Source of the DNA: a virus
Lineage: Duplodnaviria; Heunggongvirae; Uroviricota; Caudoviricetes
Direction: 5' to 3' (one strand)
IMG/VR virus record: IMGVR_UViG_3300028549_001428
DNA length: 64,000 bases
The translations under genes were made by a program, and so were the position numbers. Numbering within the stretch: the first letter of the stretch is position 1; every line of letters starts with the position of its first letter. Below, piece after piece: positions 1 through 51,501 of this stretch. A model generated the notes under the pieces. That model was given only the letters and a program-made list of their open reading frames with translations. It was not told the DNA's origin and searched no databases.

Positions 1-542
1 GAACCCATCGTGGTGGTTTCACATCAACTAAAATGTTTGCTATTGAAATGATTATTTCTATGGGATCGGCATTGTCAAGAAAGTACCATGATACACATTC
101 CAAGTCATATGATTTACGGGATAAGTGTGAAGATATTAAGAAGTACCGTGAACGATTCTTGGCTAGTCAGATTGTAGAAAAGGCACTTGACTTGGGTTGT
201 AGTTTTGTTGTATGCGAGGATATTGGATTTTCTCAACAGTACAAATCGAAGAAATCTAACAAATTACTTGCTTCAGTTAGACCAGCTATGTTTATGACTG
301 TCTTGAAAAATATGTGTAAGAATGCTCGTATTATTTGTAACACTACCGAATGTGCGTATACTAGCAGGTATGATTTCATAACAGGTAAGGAATTTACCAG
401 AACAGGAAAATTCAATGAAGTGGTAGTTGCGGAAAATTCTGTATTGAATGGACGAAATGCTAACACTATTGCTGCATGTAACATTGCATTGAATGCATTA
501 TCACCCAAGCATAGACGATGCAAGGCATTGTTGGGTAAATAA
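1..542 (+). CDS. TnpB-like RuvC nuclease, C-terminal part (5' end lies outside window)
   Basis: Reading frame is open to the window edge. It has a RuvC-II-like VVCEDIGF and a RuvC-III-like NANTIAACNIA, where the usual catalytic D appears replaced by N. The CxxC zinc finger is degenerate. It resembles 36948..38270. Confidence 0.5.
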   Translation, partial: THRGGFTSTKMFAIEMIISMGSALSRKYHDTHSKSYDLRDKCEDIKKYRERFLASQIVEKALDLGCSFVVCEDIGFSQQYKSKKSNKLLASVRPAMFMTVLKNMCKNARIICNTTECAYTSRYDFITGKEFTRTGKFNEVVVAENSVLNGRNANTIAACNIALNALSPKHRRCKALLGK

Positions 543-3325: not shown

Positions 3326-4156
3326 TCATTGTTTGTTATATAATTCTTTGTTAAACATACCACAAGAGGAACCCACATCACGACCAGGTGGGTTATAGAA
3401 TTCAACTGTGTTTGATGGGAATAATGTTCTGATATATTCTTCAGATAACTTTGTATTTGTATATCCATTGGTTTCACTTAGCGTAAGGAATTTAACTGTA
3501 CTTCCATCAGCTTTTATCTTGGATTCAAATACTTTTAATTCTTTTACACTGTCATTCACACCATTTACTAATGTGTAATGATATTCGATTGGATTTCCAG
3601 TTGATGTATGGAATTCTTGTAATAATTTAATTGATGTGCGTATACCTATTCCACTCGGCACTATTTTATCACGATTGGATATACCATGTACCGACAAGTG
3701 AACTTTGATGTTAAAGTTCATGTGGTTTAATGTCCACTTAGTTAGATATTCCATTGCATTCATATTTGGCATCATAGTGGAGATACCGAATCGTATACGA
3801 TCATACTTAGCCTGTAGGAGTTCCATAGAGGCTGTTAATTCATTCAGATTAAGCAGAGGTTCACCCACACCCATAAAGCTGATAAGCAATGCTTTATCGG
3901 CTTTGTATTCAATTTGTGCAAGGTAATCAACTACTGATACTATCCAATCTGCTGATAGATTTTTGGATGGTCTATTAGTTCCTGTAAGGTGACAGAATGT
4001 GCATCCCATTTTACAATTTGTTTGAGTAGGTAGGCAAAAAATAAGTTTTGTATCTTTGCGAATGATTGATACTTCATTCTTACCAAATGTTTCATCACTA
4101 ACTATGTATTTGGTTACATCATCTATAGTTGAATCTATTTTTTCAGTTATCCACAT
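3326..4156 (-). CDS. radical SAM enzyme
   Basis: CKMGCTFC (CxxxCxxC) near residue 48, followed by a GVGEPLL glycine-rich SAM motif. Confidence 0.75.
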   Translation of the reverse strand: MWITEKIDSTIDDVTKYIVSDETFGKNEVSIIRKDTKLIFCLPTQTNCKMGCTFCHLTGTNRPSKNLSADWIVSVVDYLAQIEYKADKALLISFMGVGEPLLNLNELTASMELLQAKYDRIRFGISTMMPNMNAMEYLTKWTLNHMNFNIKVHLSVHGISNRDKIVPSGIGIRTSIKLLQEFHTSTGNPIEYHYTLVNGVNDSVKELKVFESKIKADGSTVKFLTLSETNGYTNTKLSEEYIRTLFPSNTVEFYNPPGRDVGSSCGMFNKELYNKQ

Positions 4157-4718: not shown

Positions 4719-5102
4719 TTAATTTGTTTCATCTTTTTCATCTGCGATTAATCCATGTTTGCGCAGCTCAGTTCCCCACTCGCTAACCCATCTCTCAATC
4801 TGTCTAAAATCACAGATATGAAATCTGATCCAGTTTTCAGGCAAGGCGTGAGGAAATTCACCATCACTATGAATTACCCATTCAAGGCATCCATTTGGTT
4901 GTGAATTGTTACCTTCAAAATGCATGTGAGTATAATACCCACCTATTTGAAATCCACGATTCATAGCATAGCTAGGACATGTAGTACAGTCTTGCAATCC
5001 TTCATTAGCAATACCTAACTTACAAGGATAATACCATCTAGTATTTTCGGCTGATACACCTTCACCGTGATTTAAACAATCAAAACATTTATTATTTTTC
5101 AT
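4719..5102 (-). CDS. hypothetical Cys-rich protein
   Basis: ORF; no promoter of its own. It begins 1-2 nt after the right-end hairpin of the IsrB element. Confidence 0.5.
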   Translation of the reverse strand: MKNNKCFDCLNHGEGVSAENTRWYYPCKLGIANEGLQDCTTCPSYAMNRGFQIGGYYTHMHFEGNNSQPNGCLEWVIHSDGEFPHALPENWIRFHICDFRQIERWVSEWGTELRKHGLIADEKDETN

Positions 5103-5128
5103 ATGAACCCCATGAAACCCCTGAATCT

Positions 5129-6148
5129 TCAGTTCAGGGGAGACAAAATAATATAATTGTTGTAGGATTTAAAGGTTATGTCGGAATGCGAAGCGTTCTG
5201 ACATAACCTTTTTCCTGTTTTTAAGTTATGTAGACTTATTCTATTATTGGAAGTTCCACCAATCGTACACGTTCCATATTTAGGATGTGCTACAATTGAT
5301 CCTCTTCTGAAACCTATGGATCTCGTTGACCCATAGGGTCTACGGATTCCACCCTTTGCAGGTTGAAATGCATGTAACTGTCTACGATGAAACTGCATTG
5401 GTTTAATCAATAACATAGACCTGTCAATACTTGGTAAAGATTTCATCTGCGATGACGCAAGCACCCATGAATCGACACAATGCGCATCCCATGTATTAGA
5501 AAGTTTGTTAGAATTCTTTGAAAAGTCATGTTGCTTACGCAACGTTGCTGTTTCAAACCCCTGTAACAAAATTACGTTTAACCCAAGTGATTCTAATTGT
5601 GAATAGAACCATTTTTTCCCCACTTCGAGTGGAGAAAATGAAACATTCCATTTCTTTTTATCAGGCTTCGTTACAGCTTTTATATCTTCTATCACAGCAG
5701 TTGAAATAGGAAATATTTGTTTCATTGACATAATCAGATTTAGTTTTGCTTGCCATCTAGCTTTAGTGCTCGGTGGCAACCATTCTTTATCAGAACAATT
5801 CAAATACTTGTTTTTCCTACATGGCGTATTACGTTGCCTTCTCGATCTACGAGCATTTCTGCGTGATTCTAATGCGTCCTTAACCCAAGTGACAGCATCC
5901 AACTGTATATTCAATACAGTTTTCTTTTCTGTTGTTATTGATAAGCCTTCTTTCTTTGATCCGGGGTCTACCCCGATAGTTATTGGTTGAATCTTATTGT
6001 CGGAAGGTGCTCTGTTCAACCTGATACAGAACACACCTTTATGGATGAAAGGAGTCGCTTGTCTGGATGCAATGAGCCGTCTTGCCCTTGTGGGACAAGT
6101 CGGCATCAATACCATTCCATTATATATAACTCCTACTGACATCATCAT
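5129..6148 (-). CDS. isrB: IsrB (HNH-less IscB-family RNA-guided RuvC nickase)
   Basis: PLMP domain VLMPTCPTRARRLIASRQATPF, RuvC-I IGVDPGSKKEG, Arg-rich bridge helix ESRRNARRSRRQR, RuvC-II AVIEDIKA, RuvC-III TWDAHCVDSWVLA. Only about 70 aa separate RuvC-II and RuvC-III, so there is no HNH. Length 339 aa. Confidence 0.8.
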   Translation of the reverse strand: MMMSVGVIYNGMVLMPTCPTRARRLIASRQATPFIHKGVFCIRLNRAPSDNKIQPITIGVDPGSKKEGLSITTEKKTVLNIQLDAVTWVKDALESRRNARRSRRQRNTPCRKNKYLNCSDKEWLPPSTKARWQAKLNLIMSMKQIFPISTAVIEDIKAVTKPDKKKWNVSFSPLEVGKKWFYSQLESLGLNVILLQGFETATLRKQHDFSKNSNKLSNTWDAHCVDSWVLASSQMKSLPSIDRSMLLIKPMQFHRRQLHAFQPAKGGIRRPYGSTRSIGFRRGSIVAHPKYGTCTIGGTSNNRISLHNLKTGKRLCQNASHSDITFKSYNNYIILSPLN

Positions 6149-6415
6149 TCCTTATAAAATTTGGTCTTACGACCACTCCCTTTCGGGGTATATATTCATC
6201 TTCGTCACTGACCGACCCATAGCCTCCAACTAGACGAGTATCAGAGGGTGTATTTCGTACTGTCACGTACATTCAGTTCAGTTTGATATACCATTGCCTC
6301 TTGCGAGACAAGGCTCTCATAGACTAGTTCAATCATTCAATATATCCCATGAACTCTCACGAAGTTGACAAACCTTCCAAATTCACAAGCCCCTTGGTCT
6401 TTAACCGAGGGGTGA
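6149..6415 (-). ncRNA. putative IsrB omega-RNA scaffold
   Basis: A ~270 nt non-coding stretch immediately 5' of isrB, markedly GC-richer than its surroundings and containing many hairpins. Its position matches where IscB/IsrB omega-RNAs are encoded, and a promoter lies just upstream. Confidence 0.55.
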
Positions 6416-6428
6416 TTGACATACTACA

Positions 6429-6438
6429 ATATAGCAAA
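6429..6438 (-). promoter_or_regulatory. extended -10 promoter TTTGCTATATT feeding the omega-RNA/isrB
   Basis: rc of atatagcaaa, abutting the left end of the IsrB element. Confidence 0.5.
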
Positions 6439-6466
6439 ACGTGTCTTAAATTGAAACATTTTTATT

Positions 6467-6802
6467 TTAACTAGTAAATGGAGGGTCGTTGTATCTACCT
6501 TTGGCAGATTCTTCCTCTAGATTGTCTTGATACATAGCATTCACCAGTTCGATTAGTGCCTTTCTAGTTCTAGGTGATCTACCACCACCAGAACCGATTG
6601 TGCAGAATTGCACAGTATACCCAAATATACTTGATTGCATAGGATCATCTAGATCAGGAGTAACTGCCACAATTATATCACCATCGGGTTCTATAATTAC
6701 TTTTAAAGTGCCTACAGGAGACATGTCTTCATGTCGTTCTACGCATCTAGAGTTCAATTCATACCCATTTTTTAGTAAATCTACCACATTTTGTACACAC
6801 AA
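6467..6802 (-). CDS. hypothetical protein
   Basis: ORF in a packed block. Confidence 0.5.
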   Translation of the reverse strand: MCVQNVVDLLKNGYELNSRCVERHEDMSPVGTLKVIIEPDGDIIVAVTPDLDDPMQSSIFGYTVQFCTIGSGGGRSPRTRKALIELVNAMYQDNLEEESAKGRYNDPPFTS

Positions 6803-7121
6803 ATAGATATCGTGTACCAGTTGGGTATTCGTTGTTTCTTATTTGTTTCCACTCATGAAGACAAGTATCACCATATATTAGTCGTATTAACCATTTTTAA
6901 ATCCTATATTATTTAAATTTTGTTAATTGAATCATTTCGTATCCATCGAATTCATCATCTATTAATTCGATTTGTACGTTTGAATTTAACTGTTTTAGTT
7001 CTGCTGATATTGATTTAATTGTATTAATAATATCACATGATCCACTGTATATAAATTTTAATTTTGTTTGTACTTCTATTTCATTCATTGTATTATCCTC
7101 CTATGTATGGATACTCTCTAT

Positions 7122-11816: not shown

Positions 11817-13105
11817 TATTCGTGAACTACCCCTGAACTAAAGACTCAGGGGCTTCAAATGACATCGCTGACATTCTTTCTGCACTGGTTGCTAACGCAA
11901 TCCCATGTTTTGCAGACTTGGATTTCTGGGTGTTCCTATCTGACCCAGTATTTTTATTATCAATTGTGACAAACGAGAAATCTCGTATATTGATAGCAGC
12001 ATTAACATCCCTATCGTGGCATTCACCACAATTTGGACATGTCCATGTTCTATCAGACAACTTCAAATCGTGTTTTATGTAACCACATTTAGAACAGGTT
12101 TTTGAGCTTGGTTCAAATCTACCAATAGTTAGTATGTTACTTCCATACCATTCGCTTTTGTAGCGAAATTGTTGGAACAACATTCCCCAACCTGCATCTT
12201 GTATGTGTTTAGATAACTTACGATTTTTCATCATTTCTTTAACATTCAGGTCTTCAATGCAGATAGTTTGGTTCTCACGTATCAGTCGTGTTGAGACTTT
12301 ATGAATGAAATCTTTTCTTTGATTAGCTACACGTTCGTGTAGCAACTGTAATTTTAATTTTTGTTTCTCTGCGTTCTTAGATAATACATCACCTTTATTT
12401 TTCGATTTGATTTTTCTCGAAAATGAACGCTGAATACTAGCTAGTCTACGCTGACATGTAACAAAATGTCTTGGATTCTTTATTTCTTCACCATCACTTG
12501 TAACAATGAATGACTTTATACCTACATCAATACCAATAGCAGTTTCTTTATTGATCTCTGGCTTACTTGGTAACTCCGTTCCATCTTCTACGAGAATGGT
12601 TACGAAGTAACGACCAGCATTAGAACGCTTGATATGGCAAGTACGAATTTCACCTATGAATTGACGATGAAATACAGTCTTTATCGGTTCATTGAACTTC
12701 GGTAATTCGATGATACCTATATCGAAATTAACCGTTAGGTTTTTGGGAACCTCAAATGATTGTTTGGACTTACGATTCTTGAACTTAGGGAATCCACCCG
12801 ACTTAGCGAAGAACTTATTGTATGCGGTATCTAAGTGGATAAGCACAGCCTGTAGTGATTGTGAATTTACTTCTTTCAACCACTCAGTAGATTCCTGTTT
12901 CTTCAACTTCGGTAGATCGGCTTGTATATCATATCTAGATAATGTACCACTTGTCTGTTTGTAATGTGAAATCTTACGAGAAAGAGCATAGTTGTACATC
13001 CATCGACAATGACCAAAGTGCTTTGATAAAAGCGACTTCTGTTCATCGGTTGGATATATTCTGTATTCGTATGTCTTTTTCATCTCTACTATACAATATA
13101 GATTA
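11817..13105 (-). mobile_element. IS200/IS605-family tnpB-only element (family A, copy 1)
   Basis: TnpB ORF plus a right-end hairpin cccctgagtctttagttcagggg inside the last codons, followed by the conserved GGGTAGTTCAC end. The CCCCT-hairpin left end is not recognisable in this copy. Confidence 0.6.
11827..13083 (-). CDS. tnpB: TnpB (IS605 OrfB) RNA-guided nuclease, family A
   Basis: Has the YEYRIYPT N-terminus, RuvC-I GIDVGIKSF, RuvC-II CIEDLNV, zinc finger CSKCG...CPNCG, and RuvC-III HDRDVNAAINI. Length 418 aa. Confidence 0.9.
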   Translation of the reverse strand: MKKTYEYRIYPTDEQKSLLSKHFGHCRWMYNYALSRKISHYKQTSGTLSRYDIQADLPKLKKQESTEWLKEVNSQSLQAVLIHLDTAYNKFFAKSGGFPKFKNRKSKQSFEVPKNLTVNFDIGIIELPKFNEPIKTVFHRQFIGEIRTCHIKRSNAGRYFVTILVEDGTELPSKPEINKETAIGIDVGIKSFIVTSDGEEIKNPRHFVTCQRRLASIQRSFSRKIKSKNKGDVLSKNAEKQKLKLQLLHERVANQRKDFIHKVSTRLIRENQTICIEDLNVKEMMKNRKLSKHIQDAGWGMLFQQFRYKSEWYGSNILTIGRFEPSSKTCSKCGYIKHDLKLSDRTWTCPNCGECHDRDVNAAINIRDFSFVTIDNKNTGSDRNTQKSKSAKHGIALATSAERMSAMSFEAPESLVQG

Positions 13106-15067: not shown

Positions 15068-16472
15068 GTGTATCAATTACCTTTTTAACTGATTTCGTGA
15101 GAGAAATCCCCTAAATCTTTAGTTTAGGGGATGAATCGAACAATACAAATATACAAAAATCTAAGAAAAAATAAAAATATTTCTTAGATTATATAAACTA
15201 ATACTATGAAACGGACTTATGAGTATAGGATATATCCACGTTCTGACCAGAAAGTGCTTCTATCGAAGCATTTTGGTAGTGTTCGTTGGATGTATAATTA
15301 TGCATTGGGACGTAAGATAGAACATTACAAACAGACAAGTAAGACACTTTCTAGATATGAAATACAGGCAGAAATACCAGCAATGAAGAAAACTGAATCA
15401 ACGGCTTGGTTGAAAGAAGTGAATTCCCAGTCATTACAGGCTGTTTTGTTGAACATAGAAACTGCATATACAAAGTTCTTCAGTAAATCGGGAGGATTCC
15501 CGAAATTTAAGAACAAGAAATCAAAACAGTCATTTGAAATACCTACTAATCTAGAAGTTGATTTCGATAGTGGAACTATCGAAATCCCGAAGTTCAAGGA
15601 ACCAATCAGGACTGTATTTCATCGCAAGTTTGTAGGTGAAATACGAACCTGTCATATCAAGCGTTCCGCTTCTGGTAAATATTATGTCACTATTCTAGTG
15701 GATGATGGTAAGGAATTACCAGTAAAACCAGAGATAACAAAAGAAACTGCTATTGGTATTGATGTAGGTATCAAGTCATTTATCGTCACCAGTGAAGGTG
15801 AAGAAATATCTAATCCAAGACACTTTGTTACATGCCAGCGTAGGCTGGTATCTGTTCAACGTTCATTTTCGAGAAAAATCAAATCGAAGAAGAAAGGTGA
15901 TCCTTTATCACTAAACGCTGAAAAAGTAAAATTGAAACTGCAATTGCTCCATGAGCAAGTTGCTAACCAACGTAAAGATTTCATTCATAAAGTCTCAACT
16001 CGACTGATACGTGAGAACCAAACTATCTGTATTGAAGACCTGAATGTTAAAGGAATGCTCAAGAACCGTAAGTTATCTAAACACATCCAAGATGCTGGAT
16101 GGGGAATGTTATTCCAACAACTTCGCTATAAAAGCGAATGGTATGGAACTAATATCCTAACCATAGGCAGGTTCGAGCCTAGCTCGAAAACCTGCTCTAA
16201 ATGTGGTTACATAAAACACGATCTTATATTGAAAGATAGAACCTGGACTTGTCCGATTTGTGGTGAATGCCACGATAGAGATGTCAACGCTTCTATCAAC
16301 ATTAGAGATTTCTCTTTTGTCACTATTGATAATAAAAATACTGGGTCAATTAGGAACACCCAGAAATTAAAGCCTGTAAAATATGGGACTTCGTTAGAAG
16401 CCAGTGCAGGAAAAGCATCCGTGAGGACGCTTGAAGCCCTTGAGTCTTTAGCTCAAGGGTAGTTCACTAATA
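15068..16472 (+). mobile_element. IS200/IS605-family tnpB-only element (family A, copy 2)
   Basis: Left-end block atttcgtgagagaaatcccctaaatctttagtttagggg (about 15085-15133) is shared with copy 7. The right-end hairpin cccttgagtctttagctcaaggg lies inside the last codons, followed by GGGTAGTTCAC. Confidence 0.7.
15206..16462 (+). CDS. tnpB: TnpB (IS605 OrfB) RNA-guided nuclease, family A
   Basis: About 75% aa identity to 11827..13083, with the same motifs; in inverted orientation relative to copy 1. Confidence 0.9.
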   Translation: MKRTYEYRIYPRSDQKVLLSKHFGSVRWMYNYALGRKIEHYKQTSKTLSRYEIQAEIPAMKKTESTAWLKEVNSQSLQAVLLNIETAYTKFFSKSGGFPKFKNKKSKQSFEIPTNLEVDFDSGTIEIPKFKEPIRTVFHRKFVGEIRTCHIKRSASGKYYVTILVDDGKELPVKPEITKETAIGIDVGIKSFIVTSEGEEISNPRHFVTCQRRLVSVQRSFSRKIKSKKKGDPLSLNAEKVKLKLQLLHEQVANQRKDFIHKVSTRLIRENQTICIEDLNVKGMLKNRKLSKHIQDAGWGMLFQQLRYKSEWYGTNILTIGRFEPSSKTCSKCGYIKHDLILKDRTWTCPICGECHDRDVNASINIRDFSFVTIDNKNTGSIRNTQKLKPVKYGTSLEASAGKASVRTLEALESLAQG

Positions 16473-21227: not shown

Positions 21228-21638
21228 TTATTTATTATGTTCTTTAAATAACCATACCTGGCTATATCTATCTTTCCACTCACTTATTACATCATAATCA
21301 TCTTCTAAATACGGATAGCCATGTCCACCATCAGCATACTCTATAACAAATTCATCAGGAAAATAACAAGATGGATCATCGTCACATATGAATGGTGTCA
21401 TGTACCAATCATAATGTTTTTGATCTTCGGGTATCTTCTCGATAGCTTGTTTCTGGCTATCGGTCAACTTCACACAATATTTGTTAATATCTTCTGGTTT
21501 AGAATTAGGGTCATATGCTGTTTTATAACCGTAATCTTCACCATACTTATTAGTCAGTGTGTAGTATTCCAATGCCTTGTCACGAATGATAAAGGAACTT
21601 GATGAACTATTTGATACAAATCCATTTCTTACTTTCAT
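21228..21638 (-). CDS. paralog family protein A (MKVRNGFVSNSSSSSFI N-terminal module)
   Basis: Shares its first 17 aa with 23038..23493, 23501..23986 and 23983..24441. Confidence 0.55.
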   Translation of the reverse strand: MKVRNGFVSNSSSSSFIIRDKALEYYTLTNKYGEDYGYKTAYDPNSKPEDINKYCVKLTDSQKQAIEKIPEDQKHYDWYMTPFICDDDPSCYFPDEFVIEYADGGHGYPYLEDDYDVISEWKDRYSQVWLFKEHNK

Positions 21639-21682: not shown

Positions 21683-22969
21683 TTATAGTTGAAATGCCAA
21701 AGACAATTCAACTTTATTTCTCAGCGAGGCTACAAGAGCCTCGCTGTTCCATCGACCATCAGATGATCTAAGGAACGCTTCATCGACCGAAGTTATGTCA
21801 GAAATTGCTTTCTGACACAGAGCTACAATCTTCACGGACGTAAATTTCCCAGAGGCACTGGGTATTAATTCAAATAAGCCATAGGCTAATATGTTGATTG
21901 ATGCGTTGTGATCTCTATCAATTACACATCCACATTCTTCACATATATACTCTCTTTCATCAAGTCCAATGTGGTGCTTTAACGCACCACATTGAGAACA
22001 TAATTTGGATGAAGGAAAGAACCTATCAGCTTTAAGAACTATAGAACCTGATCGTTTGGATTTATAATCGGTCATTCTGACCAATTCACTCCACGAAGAA
22101 TCAGATATTGAACGAGCCAGCTTGTGGTTTTTAAGCATTCCTCGTATATTCAAATCTTCGAATACAATGATTGCATTTTCATTCACGATTTTTCGTGAAT
22201 ATTTATGTAAATGATCTTTTCGAATATTCGATATTCTAGCATGTTGTTTTGCTAGTTTCATTTTTGTTTTATTTCGTCTGATGCTTCCTTTGGAAGCACG
22301 AGATAATTTCTTTTGTAAGCGTACCAGCTTTTGTTGGTGCTTCTTCAATGGTCTAGGTGACTGCTCCTCATGACCATTACTCTCTACGGCAAATGTCTTT
22401 AATCCTAAATCAATACCTATAATCCCTGATTCGCTTTGGGTTATACCCAACGCATCAGGAATTTCATAATTAACAGAAACATAATATTTACCAGCAGTTC
22501 TAGAAATAGTATATGATAAAATCCTAACATGTTTCTTCTTGAATCTCAAGCCTTCGACTAACTTCACTCGTCCAACCAATGGAAGTTTTATATGATTGTT
22601 AGTGACATGAGCCTTATCATTACTCACATAAAATGAATCCCTACATTTACCTTTCTTCTTCTTTCTTGGAAACTTAAAGTGCGTATTTCCTGTCTTTTTC
22701 CCATTGAAATAATTTTTGAGAGCAATGGATAGATTAGCAAACGGTTGTTGATTTGCGTCCTTTGGACAATCATAAACCCATTTTGGCTTGCATTTATTCC
22801 ATTCTTTCTTCAAATCATTCATTGTCACTTTGGCTACGTCAAGTGACTTCTGTTCTTTCCATTTATTTAATGCCCAATTATAGGCATATCGAGATACACC
22901 AAAAGACTTGTTAAAAACCAACACCTGTTCAGGTGATGGATATAACAATATCTTTTGTCCCATTATCAT
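21683..22969 (-). CDS. tnpB: TnpB RNA-guided nuclease, family B
   Basis: RuvC-I GIDLGLKTF, RuvC-II VFEDLNI, zinc finger CSQCG...CEECG, RuvC-III DRDHNASINI. The GC-rich 3' region contains a cgaggctcttgtagcctcg hairpin. Length 428 aa. Confidence 0.9.
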   Translation of the reverse strand: MIMGQKILLYPSPEQVLVFNKSFGVSRYAYNWALNKWKEQKSLDVAKVTMNDLKKEWNKCKPKWVYDCPKDANQQPFANLSIALKNYFNGKKTGNTHFKFPRKKKKGKCRDSFYVSNDKAHVTNNHIKLPLVGRVKLVEGLRFKKKHVRILSYTISRTAGKYYVSVNYEIPDALGITQSESGIIGIDLGLKTFAVESNGHEEQSPRPLKKHQQKLVRLQKKLSRASKGSIRRNKTKMKLAKQHARISNIRKDHLHKYSRKIVNENAIIVFEDLNIRGMLKNHKLARSISDSSWSELVRMTDYKSKRSGSIVLKADRFFPSSKLCSQCGALKHHIGLDEREYICEECGCVIDRDHNASINILAYGLFELIPSASGKFTSVKIVALCQKAISDITSVDEAFLRSSDGRWNSEALVASLRNKVELSLAFQL

Positions 22970-23037: not shown

Positions 23038-23493
23038 TTACCCGTTTCTCCCTGCATAATACGTTTGTTCAATTACTTCAATTCCATTGTATTCAACTGA
23101 TGATTGGTACAATTCAATATCATCTGAATTGAATCTATCTAGATCAATATCATAATTAAGATCCCAATCATCTTCACTGTTCATGAAATCTGAATCACAA
23201 TCTGGTCCAATGCCTGTCTTGAAAATAAACAAATCATCTGGATTGGTTTTTGCCGCATGTATAACTTCATTTTCAGAAATCATACAATCCATGAAGCCAC
23301 TAGTGATAGGTTTATTCCAACCACCATTCTCTTGCATTTCAAGTAGACTAGTTCCATTCATTATCTTGTATCTACTCGCATGTGGGAATGTAGCCATCCA
23401 CTTTTCAAACTTTTTGACATCTACAATTTTTCCATAGGTAGCAATGAAGCTACTGCTAGAACTATTTGATACAAATCCATTTCTAATTTTCAT
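23038..23493 (-). CDS. paralog family protein B (MKIRNGFVSNSSSSSFI)
   Basis: Conserved 17-aa N-terminus, divergent body. Confidence 0.55.
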   Translation of the reverse strand: MKIRNGFVSNSSSSSFIATYGKIVDVKKFEKWMATFPHASRYKIMNGTSLLEMQENGGWNKPITSGFMDCMISENEVIHAAKTNPDDLFIFKTGIGPDCDSDFMNSEDDWDLNYDIDLDRFNSDDIELYQSSVEYNGIEVIEQTYYAGRNG

Positions 23494-23500
23494 ATTTTCC

Positions 23501-23986
23501 TCAGTGGTGGCTTATGCGTTCATGTGATACATTTTCAAATATATCACTATGTTCCATAAAGTTTCCCCATGATCCATCGTTGTCACAATATTTTACAGTA
23601 AATACAAATTTACCTTTATACTTACTGATTACATCTTTCGCATATTGCTCTTGGTATTTATCAGATTCAACTTGATATCGATCCCAATCAATCATACCAT
23701 CAGCTTTTCGGAAATCATCGCAATCAGGAGCACCTTGAATCGAACCATTAAAAGCATCAGCAATCTTAGCAGTATCACTTGATAGATCATTGAATACAGC
23801 TTCGCTGATTTCTTTTATTGTATGATATTCAGTTCTATCCCATAAATCATACTCATGCAATGAATCTTCACTCATGTCTGGAAACAATATTGCCATAAGA
23901 TCATTAACATCAACTGGCTTATGATCTATTGCTACGATAAAGCTACTAGAGCTACTGTTTGATACAAATCCATGTCTTAATTTCAT
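23501..23986 (-). CDS. paralog family protein C (MKLRHGFVSNSSSSSFI)
   Basis: Conserved 17-aa N-terminus, divergent body. Confidence 0.55.
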   Translation of the reverse strand: MKLRHGFVSNSSSSSFIVAIDHKPVDVNDLMAILFPDMSEDSLHEYDLWDRTEYHTIKEISEAVFNDLSSDTAKIADAFNGSIQGAPDCDDFRKADGMIDWDRYQVESDKYQEQYAKDVISKYKGKFVFTVKYCDNDGSWGNFMEHSDIFENVSHERISHH

Positions 23987-24441
23987 AGTGTTCTCAAGTA
24001 AGTTAAGAAATCAGTGTATAGTGGGAATTTTGTTTTTAATTCCTGTAATAGCTGATCTGCTGTAATTGATAATGTTTTCAATACATATTCAACATATTCA
24101 TTATCATATACTTTCTTTCTGCGTTTGTTGACCTTTTTAATTTCTTCCATTACTTCTTCTAAAGTAAATGGAGTAGTTGCTAAAAAGAATCGCTTGATTT
24201 CAGGATATGATAAATCTTCATAACTACATATTGGGCATGATGTTTCAGGAACTTCATAACTTGATGTATTTGAATCATTATTAATCATGTGACTAGTACA
24301 AAATGTATGATCATTTACACAACGCACCATGTCATAGTCGGTAACGCTATTACCATCCCAACCTATTTCGGTACGATTGCATATTTCACATATGAAACTA
24401 CTGCTAGAACTATTGCTTACAAATCCGTTTCTAATCTTCAT
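23983..24441 (-). CDS. paralog family protein D (MKIRNGFVSNSSSSSFI) with Cys-rich region
   Basis: Conserved 17-aa N-terminus; CEIC...C..C cluster; SD gagg behind a TTTGCTATATT promoter. Confidence 0.55.
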   Translation of the reverse strand: MKIRNGFVSNSSSSSFICEICNRTEIGWDGNSVTDYDMVRCVNDHTFCTSHMINNDSNTSSYEVPETSCPICSYEDLSYPEIKRFFLATTPFTLEEVMEEIKKVNKRRKKVYDNEYVEYVLKTLSITADQLLQELKTKFPLYTDFLTYLRTL

Positions 24442-24480: not shown

Positions 24481-25302
24481 TTATATGGTATAAAGTGGAC
24501 AATTTCTATGTCCCTTCAATAAATTTTCACGGAATTGTTTTGTTCGTTCATGGTTCCAGATATCCTTAATAAAATCTTCACATGACAAAACATCCAATCC
24601 TTCTTTACCCCAAGCATCAGTATTAGGACTGAATGAGCATGGATGGAACACACCGAACACATCGATATATGTAGAGAACAGACTGGATTCACATGGTTCA
24701 GCCGACATTTCAAGAACTTTTCTGCGAATAGTGTCAACACCACCCAATGACTTGAGAAACTTCTGTGCACCACAAGAATCAAAGCCAAATGGAATGTTGG
24801 AATTAAGGCATAGGTTAGTTAATTCAGCAAACTCTTCATGAGAAAGCTGTGTAAACCCACGCTTACCTCTTCCCTTTGTCTTTAAAGATAAGAACACAAT
24901 TGCATTTAAATTTTTTAATCTAGGATCAGACTTAATATCAGCAATTGTTTCTAATGCTTGATTAAGAGTTTCTTTTGATATAAGCTGATGTAAATTTATT
25001 TGAGTCATTCCACGATCAGTCAATTTCTTAACTGAATCATAACAAATATCTTTATCTGAGTAACGTGAAATTGCTACTGCTCCACAATACTTAGCTAAGT
25101 TATCGGCAACCTCATCGGAAACATCAGCAACAGTAATGTTTGGGACAATACCTTTTTCACGAGTTGCTTCCATGATCTTCCAGATATCTGGATTCATTGT
25201 ACATGTGCTATCGGCACCTAATGCCACTTGTGTTAATTGGGTTATTTGAGTTTTCGTAATAGTTTTGATTTTCATAATTATTTTCCTTTTGTATAATCGC
25301 AA
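24481..25302 (-). CDS. radical-SAM/SPASM-like protein, C-terminal portion (lacks the Cys triad)
   Basis: Has a TIM-barrel-like stretch (IVPNITVADVSD...AIVFLSLKTKG) and a C-terminal Cys cluster (CGAQ...C.SS...HPCSF...C..C). The true start is probably the internal MKIKT, 2 nt after the HNH gene stop. Confidence 0.4.
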   Translation of the reverse strand: MRLYKRKIIMKIKTITKTQITQLTQVALGADSTCTMNPDIWKIMEATREKGIVPNITVADVSDEVADNLAKYCGAVAISRYSDKDICYDSVKKLTDRGMTQINLHQLISKETLNQALETIADIKSDPRLKNLNAIVFLSLKTKGRGKRGFTQLSHEEFAELTNLCLNSNIPFGFDSCGAQKFLKSLGGVDTIRRKVLEMSAEPCESSLFSTYIDVFGVFHPCSFSPNTDAWGKEGLDVLSCEDFIKDIWNHERTKQFRENLLKGHRNCPLYTI

Positions 25303-26402
25303 ATAAGTTTACACCAATATTTAAGTTCATTCTCGGTCAATGTCTGTTTTAATTTAGTGTTAATGTCACTATGTACCCATTGTATATTATCAATTGTATA
25401 TCCTGTTGATGAATCAATTCTATTTAATGATGCAGTATCTGCTTTATATTTAAATTCTATTGGAAGACCTGTAAGAGCACAGTATCCATTTTGTTCAATA
25501 TATTTATCCCACATATCATTTATAGTGATGTCAAAATTTAAATTTCTCTCACGAGCACCTCGTTGTATTGATTTAAATTTTGTGTTATTTATATTTTTAT
25601 ATCCCTTGAATGCATGATTTTGTTGAAATATATTTGTAGCATTATTTGGGACATTATTGTGAATAGGATTTACTAAGAGATTACATAAATATACAAATCT
25701 TTCTATAGACAAATCCATTTTCATTTTATTTATTGTTTTATGTATCCAGTGAACGTTGCCTTTTGTATATCCTCTAGTTGGATCAATTCTATCTAATGAG
25801 GCAGTTTTAGTGATTCTATCCAAGTGATTTGTATTGAATTCTAATTTAAGTCCACTTAATGTGCATGTGCTATTTTGTAAAATATACTGTTCCCATACAT
25901 CATTTATTGTTACATCAAATTCGAGTCCTCGTTTATTTGCATTACTTTTTATAGAATGAAATATATGAGCCGATAATTCACCACATCCTTTCCACATATA
26001 ATTCTTATTACCTGAATCATATTGATATTTTAAACACCCACATGAACCAGTATGGTTTTTAAGATTCATTATAGAACACGTAAATATATTACCACAAAAA
26101 CATTTAACAGTAACCATACAACTATAACACCCACGCCATTCATGTGGTTTGCTTATTATATCCAAATTCTTTGTTTCTTTTAATGTCTGAATAATGGCTG
26201 ACATTTTGTTATTTCGCTTTATACATCCACATGGGTTGGTATTTGGTAATATCTTACGAAGTGATTTTGTAAATATATTACCACAATAACATTCACATGT
26301 TATTTTATCTCTTTCATTACCGTTCCAATCAGATAATAATTTTATATTTTTAGTTTCATTCAACAGAATACGTAATGAATCTACAGTGGGTATTGATCGC
26401 AT
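25278..26402 (-). CDS. HNH homing-endonuclease-like protein with duplicated zinc-finger + HNH modules
   Basis: Two CxCxC...CGC zinc-finger units and two HNH-like units (SLDRIDPTRGYTKGNVHWIH...N and SLNRIDSSTGYTIDNIQWVH...N). Confidence 0.7.
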   Translation of the reverse strand: MRSIPTVDSLRILLNETKNIKLLSDWNGNERDKITCECYCGNIFTKSLRKILPNTNPCGCIKRNNKMSAIIQTLKETKNLDIISKPHEWRGCYSCMVTVKCFCGNIFTCSIMNLKNHTGSCGCLKYQYDSGNKNYMWKGCGELSAHIFHSIKSNANKRGLEFDVTINDVWEQYILQNSTCTLSGLKLEFNTNHLDRITKTASLDRIDPTRGYTKGNVHWIHKTINKMKMDLSIERFVYLCNLLVNPIHNNVPNNATNIFQQNHAFKGYKNINNTKFKSIQRGARERNLNFDITINDMWDKYIEQNGYCALTGLPIEFKYKADTASLNRIDSSTGYTIDNIQWVHSDINTKLKQTLTENELKYWCKLICDYTKGK

Positions 26403-29737: not shown

Positions 29738-30859
29738 TTAATCCTTTATATTTGATAGTATATGTGCAATTACATCGACTGTCCAACCATTTCCACACAT
29801 TCGATATCTCTGGGTATTACTTACAACACTTGAATAATTATCAGGTATTGTTTGTAGACGTTCACATTCTAATGGGGTAATATATCTGAAACAGAATTCA
29901 TCTACAGGTATTCTATCGGGTTTAGTAAATGGAACCACAACATTATCTTTACCAACAGTAGTCAAGCAATTAGTTTTCCCATCATATCTAAATTCGATAA
30001 ATTGTGTTGTATTACCAGCCGTTTTCATTTTACCGTCCATACGCTTACCATCAACAATATATCTGCCTCTCATAGCAGCTACTGCCTGTGTATCGGTAGG
30101 AATATCAACAATCCCAAAGAATCTTTGATTTGAATATTTTTTAGAATGTGATGCTTCTATCATTTGCATCTTATCAGAATCTTTGTGTACAGTAAGAACT
30201 TTATTTTTCAAGCGTGAATTTTCTGCTAACCAATGTAATGCAGCTTCTGTATAATAATATGATTCACCATTGACACCAGATTCCTTCACATCACCCCATA
30301 CGATGCCTCTGTCCTCTGGTTGAGTCACATTTGGTATGTTGGTCCAATACAATCTTTTTCTATTCTGTGCGGAAAGGAGCGCACTATTTATCATGATAGG
30401 TTCAACACCTAATGTTTTTGTAATAACAGCTTCCCACTTCTTATGCATCACTACATTTTCTAACAGGAAATATTTAGGTTTCGTTTCTGATAATAGTCTA
30501 ACATATTCCCAGAATAAATATGACTGCCCTTCAAATTGGAATCCCTCATTTTTCAATTCTAAATATCGTTCTAATGTAATAACTTCTTCGCCACATTTAG
30601 TAGACATTCCCTTTTGTAGTCCAGCGAACGAAAAGGATTGACATGGCGACCCACCAATAAGCAAATCAATATTAGGTAACTTATCAGCAGTTACATCTAC
30701 AACACTACCCAACTGAATTGTATTTGGGTAATTATGCATAGTAACTTTAATTGCGTGCTTATCTATTTCACTAGCATAATAGTTATCAACGTTGATACCT
30801 GCTCGGTTCAACGCAATATGACCACAACTCATTCCATCAAATAATGACAATACATTCAT
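29738..30859 (-). CDS. DNA (cytosine-5)-methyltransferase
   Basis: Motif I LSLFDGMSCG, motif IV GSPCQSFSFAG, ENV motif; 373 aa. Confidence 0.9.
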   Translation of the reverse strand: MNVLSLFDGMSCGHIALNRAGINVDNYYASEIDKHAIKVTMHNYPNTIQLGSVVDVTADKLPNIDLLIGGSPCQSFSFAGLQKGMSTKCGEEVITLERYLELKNEGFQFEGQSYLFWEYVRLLSETKPKYFLLENVVMHKKWEAVITKTLGVEPIMINSALLSAQNRKRLYWTNIPNVTQPEDRGIVWGDVKESGVNGESYYYTEAALHWLAENSRLKNKVLTVHKDSDKMQMIEASHSKKYSNQRFFGIVDIPTDTQAVAAMRGRYIVDGKRMDGKMKTAGNTTQFIEFRYDGKTNCLTTVGKDNVVVPFTKPDRIPVDEFCFRYITPLECERLQTIPDNYSSVVSNTQRYRMCGNGWTVDVIAHILSNIKD

Positions 30860-36947: not shown

Positions 36948-38270
36948 TTACTGGATACAAGAAATAATATATCGTTTGGATAAATTATTCCGTGAGAAAA
37001 GATTAAAGAACTTTTCACCATTGGGTGAGAAGAGAAATCTATAACTGGATTTAGATTTCTTTGTCCATTCAAATAGAGATTTCCACGAATTAATATTGTT
37101 TGGAATATCAGATAACCTATCCTTCCATTGGAAGGAAATCTGATCAATATTAAATTCAGGGAACACTATAGGTTTGGATGCCATTGATGTATCAATGAAT
37201 ATTTTGTGGAACAGATACGCTCGTCGGCTGAGTTCAATCGAAGCAGCCACAGAATCATAATCATCTGGATTCATTATCTGCCCAATGAAGGAACTATATT
37301 GAGGTACGATTTCCTGAAAGGAAATCGCACTCAAATTACAACGTTTCTTTATGTTACTAACTAGGGCATTTCTAATCCAATAGTTATTAGTTAGCTTATT
37401 GAATTGTTTTCCTTTACGCTTATCAGCAGAAGGTATTGATAGCTTCTCAAATACAACAATCTGACATTGGTAGTGTTTAGCTAGATTAACTATATATTTA
37501 GATGCATTCAAGGTTTCATGCTTTCTTTTATTAGTCTGATATTTGGTATGAGATAGTGCATTGATATCCTTGAAAGAAATTATTTCTTTATGTATAACAG
37601 TTTTATCGCTTTCGGATTTCCAGTCTATGACCGATAATCCAATAAAATTTGGATTCATATCAAATGATAAAATCCTATCTCTAATAACTGTTGGTTGTGC
37701 TATGCACAATACATTTTCATCAAATATAATTGATATCGAATTTAAACTTACATCAAGTGAGAAACAAGCCTTCCCTTCTTCACATAATAGTTGTAATATA
37801 CTCAATTGTGTTTTATGTTTCTTCGATAATCTAGGAAGCTGAATATTAATATGAGTTTCTCTGCTTAACTTCAATATTATAGAATTTGACTCTATAATAT
37901 TTAAGTTAGCTTTCCTATTTCCGTTAGGATCAGATGAAGATCCACGCAGAAACAATGGAATATCCCTATTGGATTTCCACTCATCATGTGTTATCTTTCG
38001 TTTTATACGCTTGATGAAGTTAGCTTTACCTCCAAATATTACATTTGAGTCAACAATACCTTTAGCTTTGTTGACTCCCATATTCATCAAAGATGCATCC
38101 AATAAATCGATGCCTTGCATTCGACTCTTGACTATATGGTACACTTCGCTTAATGTCAAATTAGGATCATCTTGAAACCTGTTATAAGCAAACCTAACAA
38201 CACTGTTAAATTGACGAATATATCCGTCAATTCCAACAATTTTATCCAATCTATACTTATAACTTATCAT
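36948..38270 (-). CDS. TnpB-like RuvC nuclease lacking the CxxC zinc finger
   Basis: YKYRL N-terminus, RuvC-I SFDMNPNFIGLSV, RuvC-II VVFEKLSI, RuvC-III-like DDYDSVAASIE; there are no cysteine pairs between RuvC-II and RuvC-III. Length 440 aa. Confidence 0.65.
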   Translation of the reverse strand: MISYKYRLDKIVGIDGYIRQFNSVVRFAYNRFQDDPNLTLSEVYHIVKSRMQGIDLLDASLMNMGVNKAKGIVDSNVIFGGKANFIKRIKRKITHDEWKSNRDIPLFLRGSSSDPNGNRKANLNIIESNSIILKLSRETHINIQLPRLSKKHKTQLSILQLLCEEGKACFSLDVSLNSISIIFDENVLCIAQPTVIRDRILSFDMNPNFIGLSVIDWKSESDKTVIHKEIISFKDINALSHTKYQTNKRKHETLNASKYIVNLAKHYQCQIVVFEKLSIPSADKRKGKQFNKLTNNYWIRNALVSNIKKRCNLSAISFQEIVPQYSSFIGQIMNPDDYDSVAASIELSRRAYLFHKIFIDTSMASKPIVFPEFNIDQISFQWKDRLSDIPNNINSWKSLFEWTKKSKSSYRFLFSPNGEKFFNLFSRNNLSKRYIISCIQ

Positions 38271-45027: not shown

Positions 45028-46149
45028 ATGATAATGATGAAGACATATAAATACAAGTTGTACAATCGAGATGCTTTGAAGCATCTTGATCGTATAGTTG
45101 ATTTGTCTTCATGGATATATAATCACTGTATAGCTTTACATCGTAGATATTATAGATTGTTCAAGAAACATTTAAATAAGTATCAGTTGCAGAAGCACCT
45201 GACGAAGCTGAAGCGAACTGAAAGGTTCGTTTCATGGAAGGAAGTACCCAGCCAAGCAATACAGGATATAACAGATAGAATAGATCGTTCCTATTTGATG
45301 TTCTATAAGAACATCAAATTGAAGAAGAAAAGCTCACCGCCTCACTTCCAGAAGAAAGTGAATTATCTGAGTTTCACTACGAAACAGGCAGGATTCAAGT
45401 TATTGGAAGGAGACAAGATCCGCATAGCGGATCATGTCTTCCCATACTGGAACTCACGTCCTGTCAATGGAACTATAAAGACTCTAACCGTTAAAAGAAC
45501 TACTCGTGGATATTATATTTATCTAGTGGTAGAGGAAGAAGCAAACATATCGAAGCCAGTTACATCAGGTAAAAGCGTGGGCTTTGATTTTGGTATGAAG
45601 AAATTCCTTGTTGCCTCAGATGGAAATGATGTCACTATGCCATTGTTCCTCAAGAAGTCACTGAAAAAGTTGCGCCTTTTGACGCAAAAGTTTAGTAAAT
45701 CTAGAGGAAAGTTTGGCTCACGTAAGTCACTGTCCAAACTACATGAAAAGGTTTCAAATCAACGAAATGATATGCATTGGAAGTTAGCCCATAGGCTGAC
45801 TTCCACCTATGATTTTATTATATTTGAAACTCTTGATCTTCTTGGTATGTATAAAGCTTGTCAGAAGAAAATCATGGACTTCGGATTCGCCTCATTCTTA
45901 TCCATTCTCGAATATGTTGCGAAACAAAAAGGAAAAATAGTCCACTACGTGGATAAATATTTCCCTTCTTCACAACTATGTTTCGATTGTGGATACCAAA
46001 ATGCAGAAATTAAAGATACTAAAATTCGTGAATGGATATGTCCTCAATGTGGTTCTGTTCATGATAGAGATCAGAACGCTGCTAATAACATTGAAAGAGA
46101 AGGGACTTCTTCTCTAAATACTTGCGCCACTGGCGTAATATGTATTTGA
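45028..46149 (+). CDS. tnpB: TnpB RNA-guided nuclease, family C
   Basis: YKYKLYN N-terminus, RuvC-I VGFDFGMKKF, RuvC-II IIFETLDL, zinc finger CFDCG...CPQCG, RuvC-III HDRDQNAANNI. Length 373 aa. Confidence 0.85.
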   Translation: MIMMKTYKYKLYNRDALKHLDRIVDLSSWIYNHCIALHRRYYRLFKKHLNKYQLQKHLTKLKRTERFVSWKEVPSQAIQDITDRIDRSYLMFYKNIKLKKKSSPPHFQKKVNYLSFTTKQAGFKLLEGDKIRIADHVFPYWNSRPVNGTIKTLTVKRTTRGYYIYLVVEEEANISKPVTSGKSVGFDFGMKKFLVASDGNDVTMPLFLKKSLKKLRLLTQKFSKSRGKFGSRKSLSKLHEKVSNQRNDMHWKLAHRLTSTYDFIIFETLDLLGMYKACQKKIMDFGFASFLSILEYVAKQKGKIVHYVDKYFPSSQLCFDCGYQNAEIKDTKIREWICPQCGSVHDRDQNAANNIEREGTSSLNTCATGVICI

Positions 46150-47482: not shown

Positions 47483-48769
47483 ATGTTAATGGGTCAGAAG
47501 ATATTGTTGTATCTATCGCCTGAACAGGCGTTGGTTTTTAACAAGTCTTTTGGCGTATCCCGATATGCCTATAACTGGGCATTAAGTAAATGGAAAGAAC
47601 ATAAATCACTTGGCGTAGCCAAAGTGACAATGAATGATTTGAAGAAAGAATGGAATAAATGTAAGCCAGAATGGGTTTATGATTGTCCAAAGGACGCTAA
47701 TCAACAACCATTTGCTGATTTATCCACTGCATTAAAGAATTATTTTACATCAAAGAAAGCGGGGAATAAGCATTTTAAGTTTCCAAGAAAGAAGAAACGA
47801 GGAAAATGTAAAGATTCTTTCTATGTGAGTAACGATAAGGCTCATATAACTAACAATCATATTAAATTGCCTTTAATTGGTAAAGTGAAGTTAGCCGAAG
47901 GCTTGAGATTCAAGAAGAAACATGTTAGGATTTTATCATATACTATTTCTAGAACTGCTGGTAAATATTATGTTTCTGTTAATTATGAAATTCCTGATGC
48001 GTTGGGTGTAACCCAAAGCGGATCAGGAATAGTAGGAATAGATTTAGGATTAAAGACATTTGCCGTAGAGAGTAATGGACATGAGGAGCAATCACCTAGA
48101 CCATTGAAGAAGCACCAACAAAAGCTGGTACGCTTACAAAAGAAATTATCTCGTGCTTCCAAGGGAAGCATCAGACGAACTAAAACGAAAATGAAACTAG
48201 CAAAACAACATGCTAGGATTTCAAATATTCGAAAAGATCATTTGCATAAATATTCACGAAAGATCGTGAACGAAAATGCAATTATTGTTTTCGAAGATTT
48301 GAATATACGAGGAATGCTTAAAAACCACAAGCTGGCTCGTTCAATATCTGATTCTTCTTGGAGTGAATTGGTCAGAATGACCGATTACAAATCCAAACGA
48401 TCAGGTTCTATAGTCTTAAAAGCTGATAGGTTCTTTCCTTCATCTAAATTATGTTCACAATGTGGTGCGTTAAAGCACCACATTGGACTTGATGAAAGAG
48501 AGTATATATGTGAACAATGCGGATGTGTGATTGATCGAGATCACAATGCATCAATCAACATTCTAGCCTATGGCTTATTTCAATTAATACCCAGTGCCTC
48601 TGGGAAATTTACGTCCGTGAAGATTGTAGCTCTGTGTCAGAAAGCAATTTCTGACATAACTTCGGTCGATGAAGCGTTCCTTAGATCATCTGATGGTCGA
48701 TGGAACAGCGAGGCTCTTGTAGCCTCGTTGAGAAATCAAGTTGTTTTGTCATTGACAGAACTTCCATAA
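47483..48769 (+). CDS. tnpB: TnpB RNA-guided nuclease, family B
   Basis: About 93% aa identity to 21683..22969, in inverted orientation; all RuvC and zinc-finger motifs are intact. Confidence 0.9.
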   Translation: MLMGQKILLYLSPEQALVFNKSFGVSRYAYNWALSKWKEHKSLGVAKVTMNDLKKEWNKCKPEWVYDCPKDANQQPFADLSTALKNYFTSKKAGNKHFKFPRKKKRGKCKDSFYVSNDKAHITNNHIKLPLIGKVKLAEGLRFKKKHVRILSYTISRTAGKYYVSVNYEIPDALGVTQSGSGIVGIDLGLKTFAVESNGHEEQSPRPLKKHQQKLVRLQKKLSRASKGSIRRTKTKMKLAKQHARISNIRKDHLHKYSRKIVNENAIIVFEDLNIRGMLKNHKLARSISDSSWSELVRMTDYKSKRSGSIVLKADRFFPSSKLCSQCGALKHHIGLDEREYICEQCGCVIDRDHNASINILAYGLFQLIPSASGKFTSVKIVALCQKAISDITSVDEAFLRSSDGRWNSEALVASLRNQVVLSLTELP

Positions 48770-51321: not shown

Positions 51322-51501
51322 GATGGAACGTATGAAAGTAGTTAGAGTAACAAAAGAAGAATATGAGTTGGATGACGGAACAATCATCACTCACGTAAGC
51401 AAGTTGGACGAAGTTCCAACCATTGAAGAATTCCAAGCCTATCTAGATGAATGGTACGACAAGATCGTTCCTCGCTACGAGGAACGCAATGAAGGATAAG
51501 T
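51322..51501 (+). CDS. small hypothetical protein overlapping the IS607 left end
   Basis: 59-aa ORF (MERMKVVRVTKEEYELDD...); below the track threshold. Confidence 0.3.

Follow-up and report, generated by a model that had tools for sequence, protein, structure and literature searches.

The locus described here raises the question of how a gene for an RNA-guided nuclease can reside directly in front of the start codon of a phage gene. The locus is located in a stretch of 64,000 nucleotides (hereafter, the window) from the virus record IMGVR_UViG_3300028549_001428 (Caudoviricetes), where the gene isrB and a non-coding region upstream of it lie on the minus strand between the genes 6467..6802 and 4719..5102. 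According to the results given below, positions 5103..6420 (minus strand) very probably represent a complete, non-autonomous IsrB/omega-RNA OMEGA element of the IS200/IS605 family (ISC type) in a large phage genome. An earlier note, made from the sequence alone, had proposed a phage-borne IsrB with an upstream omega RNA and IS200/IS605-type ends, and this proposal is upheld by the protein match, by covariation in the RNA and by breakpoints of homology at the ends. The window is phage-like in its content (PHROG matches, short co-directional open reading frames (ORFs), no tRNAs), and the host genome is a probable jumbo phage. No close DNA relative of the window was detected among GenBank phages in near or distant search mode; close relatives of the element were found in IMG/VR. 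The kind of element, its target-adjacent motif (TAM), its RNA and the occurrence of IsrB-type genes in phages are already known. We did not find, in the open-access literature, a description of the size of the phage-resident clade or of its regular placement between a ribosome-binding site (RBS) and ATG-A.

The limits of the element were set by the breakpoints of homology with its relatives. In blastn, the similarity to the IMG/VR loci L004, L005 and L007 is restricted to the part of the window that starts at 5090, 5097 or 5098 and ends at 6420 or 6422, and the flanks are dissimilar. The contig of L005 stops precisely at the G of GTCAAC. As the homology stops at the ends, the element is regarded as a mobile unit of 1318 bp (5103..6420), which comprises the omega-RNA gene, isrB and both subterminal hairpins. 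The clade of the window element (at least 70% identity) is seen solely in viral or metagenomic contigs. The region 5' of isrB had been described as much richer in GC than the rest of the window. This is correct for the non-coding positions 6149–6420 (43.4%, against 33.4% for the window and 30–34% for the flanks), but the isrB ORF is likewise raised (38.5%). Thus, the entire element is GC-richer, and not the RNA part alone.

The ORF 5129..6148 (minus strand) is present exactly as the earlier note had claimed, and encodes a 339-aa homologue of RuvC-only RNA-guided nickases. Residues 10–157 match the Pfam family RRXRR (PF14239) with an E-value of 5.9e-35, and PHROG 32617 matches the protein across its full length. 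The NCBIfam model guided_IscB matches the N-terminal half only, with 114.9 bits against a cut-off of 175. In the PDB sequence search, the top solved relative is DtIsrB from Desulfovirgula thermocuniculi (8dmb; E 9e-30, residues 9–293), whereas the IscBs are aligned over just the first ~110 residues. An AlphaFold2 model was built from 28 homologues, with a predicted local distance difference test (pLDDT) score of 78 and a predicted template-modelling (pTM) score of 0.74. The best Foldseek match of the model is again DtIsrB (8dmb_P), with an E-value of 4.5e-24, TM scores of 0.71/0.73 and 344 aligned columns, covering the whole chain. The IscBs come second with lower target-normalised TM scores, because the HNH domain of IscB has no counterpart in the model, and RuvC resolvases and Cas12f are far behind. 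Identification of the ORF as TnpB or IscB was rejected on the basis of the RRXRR match, the guided_IscB score below the cut-off, and 8dmb being the best match in both sequence and fold; the profile search that had been suggested thus points to IsrB rather than TnpB.

The motifs of the IscB family are located where they had been predicted: LMPT at residues 14–17, Asp61 in GVDPGSK, the arginine-rich bridge helix RRNARRSRRQR at residues 96–106, Glu154 in VIEDIK, and DAHCVD at residues 221–226. Asp61, Glu154, His223 and Asp226 are invariant in all 39 relatives compared and align to DtIsrB; Met15, Pro16 and the bridge-helix arginines 100, 103, 104 and 106 are also invariant. Only 69 residues lie between Glu154 and His223, so that an HNH domain has no room, and no Pfam HNH match was obtained, in agreement with the earlier note. 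The ratio of nonsynonymous to synonymous substitution rates (dN/dS) is 0.11–0.19 against five relatives, including two paralogues described below. These results indicate that the protein is an IsrB under purifying selection. By analogy, it would cut one DNA strand in an RNA-guided and TAM-dependent manner. A search for compact relatives gave 4097 proteins at E ≤ 1e-20. In its 3' part, isrB also contains a long hairpin of 19 pairs (5171..5211), which is maintained in the close clade through paired substitutions despite amino-acid changes. Its T-run is on the antisense strand, and the hairpin could be an antisense terminator.

The comparison with DtIsrB extends beyond the fold. Both proteins have the PLMP domain, a split RuvC domain with an arginine-rich bridge helix, a C-terminal β-rich TAM-interacting part and no HNH domain, and in both cases the gene is directly preceded by that of a large omega RNA. 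The window protein is, however, just 26% identical to DtIsrB, and resides in a phage rather than a bacterial genome. IscB elements, such as ISGst5 of Geobacillus stearothermophilus and that of OgeuIscB, share the upstream omega RNA, the guide taken from the flank and the subterminal hairpins (PMC10055086). In contrast to IsrB, IscB has the HNH insertion and makes double-strand breaks.

The omega RNA had been predicted directly 5' of isrB, and this position is confirmed by a match to the HEARO family, by the RNAs of relatives and by covariation. The Rfam HEARO model (RF02033) matches positions 6190–6420 (minus strand) with 28.0 bits and an E-value of 0.0035. A covariance-model match was therefore obtained in the predicted place, although it falls well short of the gathering score (83). 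The sequences 5' of isrB in 16 relatives could be aligned well, and an nhmmer family profile built from them detects one RNA before isrB in almost every one of the 39 phage loci. In the 64-kb window, this profile gives exactly one match (6421..6189). According to these results, the scaffold is assigned to 6155..6420, with an approximate 3' limit. Covariation was examined for 37 pairs in five helices, namely the 5' helix GUCAA..UUGAC, the CCCC..GGGG hairpin and three downstream helices. In total, 88% of the cells are paired, compared with 71% in shuffles and 30–45% in slid controls, and changes on both sides are observed in 22 of the 37 pairs (4/8 in the CCCC..GGGG hairpin, helix 2). The covariation score of 0.489 was not reached by any of 500 shuffles, for which the value is 0.184, and sliding the partners by 1–3 columns reduced it to 0.06–0.13. 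The description of the region as full of hairpins is not borne out by the minimum free energy (MFE), which has a z-score of −1.15, with 24 of 200 shuffled sequences being as stable or more so. As the MFE is not significant, the support for the RNA comes from covariation and not from stability.

Like the HEARO RNA, which was later recognised as the IscB omega RNA (PMC13565253), the window RNA has the 5' helix GUCAA..UUGAC and the CCCC..GGGG hairpin, and the model also aligns helices downstream of these. Several HEARO helices are, however, replaced or missing. Together with the low score, this indicates that the window RNA is a divergent IsrB-type branch of the HEARO family. The homologous RNA of Bacillus phage AgentSmith scores 46 bits to HEARO. 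The last hairpin of the window RNA, TGGTCGTAAGACCA, is followed by AAUUUUAU (6162..6175). This terminator-like site is conserved in L005–L007 and located just 5' of the Shine–Dalgarno sequence (SD; AAGGA) and start of isrB; the hairpin and U-tract may be a leaky 3' end of the RNA.

Additional RNA arrangements are found in relatives. A solo omega-RNA gene, 84% identical to that of the window and with no isrB following it, is present at L004:3953-4184; in this gene the 5' motif is mutated (GTTAT) and a separate terminator hairpin is present, and the RNA might act as a guide in trans. In some relatives, 5' parts of the element are duplicated (L030:4993-5175 and 5293-5473, L003:2655-2760, L014:5678/5712), and those of L030 form a tandem pair of omega RNAs. 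In Microcystis phage Ma-LMM01, three ~38-nt partial repeats GTC[GA]CTAACCCCG..CCTAAGGCGACAGGA precede the true RNA start.

Both ends of the element carry an imperfect subterminal hairpin, and terminal inverted repeats are absent. The 5' hairpin, CCCCTCGG-TTAAAGA-CCAAGGGG (6390..6412, minus strand), was read in the sequence and is also the first stem-loop of the omega RNA (the covarying helix 2). The 3' hairpin is CCCCTGAA-CTGAAGA-TTCAGGGG (5118..5140, minus strand), and its block ...GGGGTTTC... is conserved in 19 relatives. The two hairpins resemble each other, and both are kept in the relatives. RNAalifold applied to the 3' ends predicted no pairs because the alignment was too gappy. Two CCCC...GGGG hairpins had indeed been reported by the earlier note, but at 6386–6410 and 5104–5128, that is, 2–14 nt off. 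In addition, the 3' hairpin had been placed beyond isrB, and it instead covers the stop codon (5129–5131). The assignment of the ends to the IS200/IS605 type holds, given the subterminal hairpins and the homology breakpoints.

Outside the hairpins, the element starts with GTCAA (6416..6420, minus strand), which is the transposon-encoded motif (TEM) and at the same time the first bases of the omega scaffold, where position 1 of the HEARO model aligns. GTCA[AC] is kept at the 5' boundary in phage and bacterial loci. At the other end, the tail TTTCATGGGGTTCAT (5103..5117, minus strand) contains an SD-like GGGG at 5108–5111, five bases ahead of the ATG of gene 4719..5102; close relatives have GAGGG, GGAG or GGGGGA at this position. 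The last base of the element is 5103, so the unit ends right before this ATG, as had been noted. The TAM, ATGA (5099..5102, minus strand), thus lies outside the element, and gene 4719..5102 starts with its ATG. This motif fits the published IsrB TAM, NTGA (cited in PMC11237433). TEM and TAM are related, and GTCAA differs from ATGAA at two positions. The same relationship is known for ISGst5: the TAM of GstIscB at the far end is TTCAT, the reverse complement of ATGAA, and the motif at the RNA-encoding end differs from it at two positions, by which the occupied locus is protected (PMC10055086). The donor-joint targeting model is from the same paper. Between the near-identical phage contigs L017 and L039, the junction motif at position 7012 varies (ATGA or ATGC); after occupation of the site, the TAM is evidently able to drift.

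The placement in front of a start codon is a rule in the family. ATGA adjoins the 3' end of the element in 27 of 29 non-redundant phage loci (the exceptions are ATGG and GTGA), and the first TAM base is almost always A, a further difference of the window clade from DtIsrB. In 23 of the 29 loci, the junction ATG is the start of an ORF with 45 codons or more, compared with 34% of all ATGA sites there (p = 8e-7). An SD is found at −16 to −4 of the 5' flank in 17 of 30 phage loci, against a background of 18% (p = 2e-6). When both flanks are joined, an ordinary SD–spacer–ATG gene start is rebuilt. In bacterial loci, for which the detection was crude, the corresponding counts are 20/27 for ATGA, 12/27 for the gene start and 7/27 for the SD; these relatives are at most 57% identical and belong to Nostocales, Chloroflexota and Poribacteria. 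At gene 4719..5102, the tail of the element seems to replace the RBS displaced by the insertion.

The guide would be encoded by the other flank. In the architecture of IscB and IsrB, the guide is located next to the scaffold (PMC13565253, PMC10055086), and the 16 nt directly 5' of the first scaffold base, TGCTATATTGTAGTAT (6421..6436, minus strand, outside the element), would serve as the guide by analogy. This sequence is unique in the window at 0 mismatches. The predicted target is TGCTATATTGTAGTAT followed by ATGA in a genome with no insertion. The earlier note had placed a host-type promoter at 6429–6438 and supposed that it supplies the guide end of the RNA. A consensus scan detects no sigma-70 site on the minus strand there, and an extended −10-like sequence, TGcTATATT (6436–6428), is recognised by eye only. 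Transcription from this box would start 6–8 nt downstream, at about 6420–6422, which is the first scaffold base, and the RNA would contain no guide. The upstream phage gene 6467..6802 ends at 6467, and in most relatives the flank is the 5' untranslated region of a phage gene. Read-through transcription is thus the more likely source of the guide.

Autonomous members of the IS200/IS605 family encode a Y1 (HUH) transposase, TnpA. No Y1 TnpA was detected in the 64-kb window by a motif scan and phmmer, nor around the 39 phage isrB copies out to a distance of 6 kb. The phmmer queries were IS200 and IS608 TnpA sequences; as a positive control, they retrieved the TnpA at L067:5995-6408 in a metagenome-assembled genome of Chloroflexota with E-values of 1e-18 to 1e-25. 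The element is therefore non-autonomous, as are most ISC elements (PMC13565253). L067 is the sole isrB relative with an adjacent Y1 TnpA among 131 loci and represents an autonomous form.

An allele with no insertion was searched for by pattern scans and flank-protein searches, and none was found for the window locus or any related locus. The target sequence is therefore reconstructed, not observed; the reconstructed junction of the empty site is ...TATTGTAGTAT|ATGAAAAATAAT.... The proteins of the window flanks have no relatives in IMG/VR. The gapped junction patterns of the window and L097 gave no matches in metagenome contigs, and those of L034, L017 and L004 gave none in viral contigs. The genes downstream of L017 and L035 have orthologues with no isrB, and at 59–70% identity these are too diverged for a base-exact empty site. 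No relatives of AgentSmith were found. The Microcystis phages MaMV-DL01 and DL02 were considered as empty sites and rejected; they lack isrB, but both ends of the element are retained around an HNH gene. This place (L132:4040-4900 in DL01, likewise in DL02) is the locus of the Ma-LMM01 IsrB element. In DL01, the omega 5' end is retained over ~75 nt and the 3' end, with its hairpin and ATGA, over ~150 nt, and the interior is swapped for a gene of a 192-aa HNH endonuclease, i.e. one mobile nuclease inside another.

The window element probably has sister copies in the same genome. Related contigs are present in JGI 3300033562. A protein 100% identical to the window IsrB (P0001) is encoded on a JGI contig of 365,647 bp, which also carries the paralogues P0002 (91% identity) and P0023 (75%), both included in the dN/dS comparison above. 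L097, the copy that encodes P0002, is accompanied by a separate omega RNA and resides at an ATGA located two codons ahead of the stop codon in a small gene, and the P0023 copy corresponds to L004/L098. The three elements have different flanks and ATGA sites, and hence different guides, and their synonymous divergence (dS) is 0.3–1.0. According to the divergence and the different flanks, the three copies are old residents rather than the result of a recent burst.

On balance, these features fit best a canonical IsrB OMEGA element that would nick the allele free of the insertion and be copied into it by recombination. Read-through from gene 6467..6802 would make an RNA whose 5' ~16 nt (6436–6421) are the guide and whose next ~265 nt (6420 to ~6155) fold as the omega scaffold. 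The same transcript, beyond the weak hairpin and U-tract, would be translated into the RuvC-only IsrB. The resulting ribonucleoprotein (RNP) would recognise the predicted target in a phage genome free of the insertion and nick one strand there, the non-target strand by homology to DtIsrB. In a recombination-proficient infection, the nick might be repaired from the element-bearing genome, and the element would be copied or restored (homing or retention). The occupied locus would be protected because the guide match there precedes GTCA and not ATGA. The first arrival at a new ATGA would need Y1 TnpA in trans, and none is encoded nearby. At the locus studied here, the insertion would have occurred between the former 5' untranslated region and the ATG of gene 4719..5102, and would be tolerated as the 3' tail provides a substitute Shine–Dalgarno sequence.

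Several points weigh against the proposed mechanism. The 5' flank in the window has no recognisable SD, unlike that of most relatives; the sole promoter-like box would yield a guide-less RNA; the HEARO match is far under the gathering threshold; and no empty allele was observed. Moreover, recombination is triggered less effectively by a nick than by a double-strand break, and we know of no element for which homing driven by IsrB has been demonstrated. It is possible, though doubtful, that the role of IsrB is purely restorative. Mobility would then depend on a Y1 TnpA from another source, either the host or the rest of the 365-kb genome, and IsrB would re-install the element after excision on the sister genome, with no homing from phage to phage. 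Such a role has been demonstrated for IscB and TnpB (PMC10055086), and the element retains in full both the subterminal hairpins of TnpA type and the TAM/TEM pair. The colonisation of several ATGA sites on one contig requires a transposase, and the bacterial relative L067 is autonomous with its TnpA at 5995–6408. However, the phage copies and the window lack TnpA over the ranges searched, with queries that recovered the L067 control, and the divergence of the copies (dS 0.3–1.0) argues against frequent recent transposition.

Since the targets are translation-start regions of phage genes, the RNP might alternatively act as a weapon between phages, nicking the RBS and start region of the orthologous gene in relatives free of the insertion. 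Damage to competitors or local marker exclusion, as with the free-standing Seg/Mob endonucleases, would be the principal effect, and spread would be secondary. Phage homing endonucleases are known to cause marker exclusion (PMC13565253), and further mobile nucleases abound in the window (at least seven tnpB genes and a double HNH endonuclease gene). On the other hand, a nick is a mild lesion, and the event is mechanistically the same as in homing, so that sequence cannot separate the two; we consider this alternative unlikely. A decaying passenger with no present activity would be consistent with the lack of TnpA, the lack of observed empty sites and the sub-threshold HEARO score, but is very improbable, as the ORF is full-length with invariant catalytic residues and a dN/dS of 0.11–0.19, the RNA helices are maintained by compensatory changes, and both ends are intact. 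Equally remote is a domesticated regulator, in which the RNP would bind DNA or RNA at the translation start and regulate the phage gene, like nuclease-dead repressors derived from TnpB. The overlap of the guide region with the RBS regions of phage genes, and the solo omega-RNA gene with its own terminator on L004 in a related phage set, would fit such a function. The known domesticated OMEGA regulators have, however, lost catalytic residues, all four of which are invariant here, and the guide matches only its own flank, which is made non-targetable by the TEM. A bolder reading, which we consider less likely than not, is that the IsrB clade has developed into an RNA-guided homing system resident in large phages, with the start codon and one further base (ATG-A) as the TAM and the RBS region of the gene as the guide. 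Insertion would then fall precisely between RBS and ATG, the end of the element would provide a new RBS, and spread among co-infecting phages would proceed by nick-induced recombination with no transposase.

IsrB-type units have been found in other phages. In cyanosiphophage Mic1, an IsrB-like unit with an upstream RNA is inserted in gp49 at ATGA, and was reported as a host gene disrupting a phage gene (PMC11237433); by contrast, the window clade resides mostly harmlessly at gene starts. RRXRR genes with HEARO-like RNA upstream are also present in Ma-LMM01 (gp171, 32% identical) and AgentSmith (gp1, 39%). The Seg/Mob enzymes of T-even phages and the nicking HNH homing enzymes are similarly encoded by intergenic phage nuclease genes, and break-induced spread is expected in co-infection. 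The difference is that these enzymes recognise DNA by the protein, whereas the window element would use an RNA guide together with a 4-nt motif and is bounded by transposon ends.

Among the known relatives of Cas9, IsrB is the smallest. Because it only nicks, its biological role is, to our knowledge, the least tested among the OMEGA nucleases. A phage lineage with several diverged, selectively maintained IsrB–omega units, and with no transposase found in the window or beside the copies, is a natural system for the question of nick-driven homing; IS605 is known to spread in plasmids independently of TnpA (PMC13565253). A TAM consisting of ATG and A, with the RBS region as the guide, would explain the persistence of such elements in gene-dense genomes with no loss of the genes concerned. 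The junction pattern yields ready target predictions for biochemistry, and the many compact IsrB relatives with matched RNAs are raw material for nickase-based editors. If the bolder reading of a transposase-free homing system is true, the three isrB copies, the solo omega RNA and the many tnpB genes on the contigs tied to this phage would constitute a natural arena of RNA-guided gene drives.

The window genome is unusually crowded with RNA-guided nuclease elements. Seven full-length TnpB genes with Pfam OrfB_IS605 and Cas12f1-like_TNB matches are located at 11827–13083 (minus), 15206–16462 (plus), 21683–22969 (minus), 45028–46149 (plus), 47483–48769 (plus), 52148–53488 (plus) and 62073–63374 (plus), and a C-terminal TnpB fragment at 33–542 (plus). 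Some of them form close paralogue pairs as judged by eye. A serine recombinase gene with MerR-type helix-turn-helix and resolvase domains (51447–52151, plus) lies upstream of and overlaps the TnpB gene 52148–53488; the pair 51447–53488 is typical of an autonomous IS607-type element. The 440-aa ORF 36948–38270 (minus) has no Pfam, PHROG or PDB sequence match, and its sole match is TIGR01766 ('TnpB-related'; E 3.7e-5, 24 bits against a cut-off of 32). Its product may be a very divergent RuvC/TnpB-like protein with no zinc finger. Four paralogous ORFs on the minus strand start with MK[IVL]R[NH]GFVSNSSSSSFI (21228–21638, 23038–23493, 23501–23986 and 23983–24441), and three of them flank a TnpB gene. 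The other genes assigned are those of a two-domain HNH/endonuclease VII-like protein (25278–26402, minus), a C5 cytosine methyltransferase (29738–30859, minus), a Sir2-like protein (57163–57843, plus) and a radical-SAM protein (3326–4156, minus).

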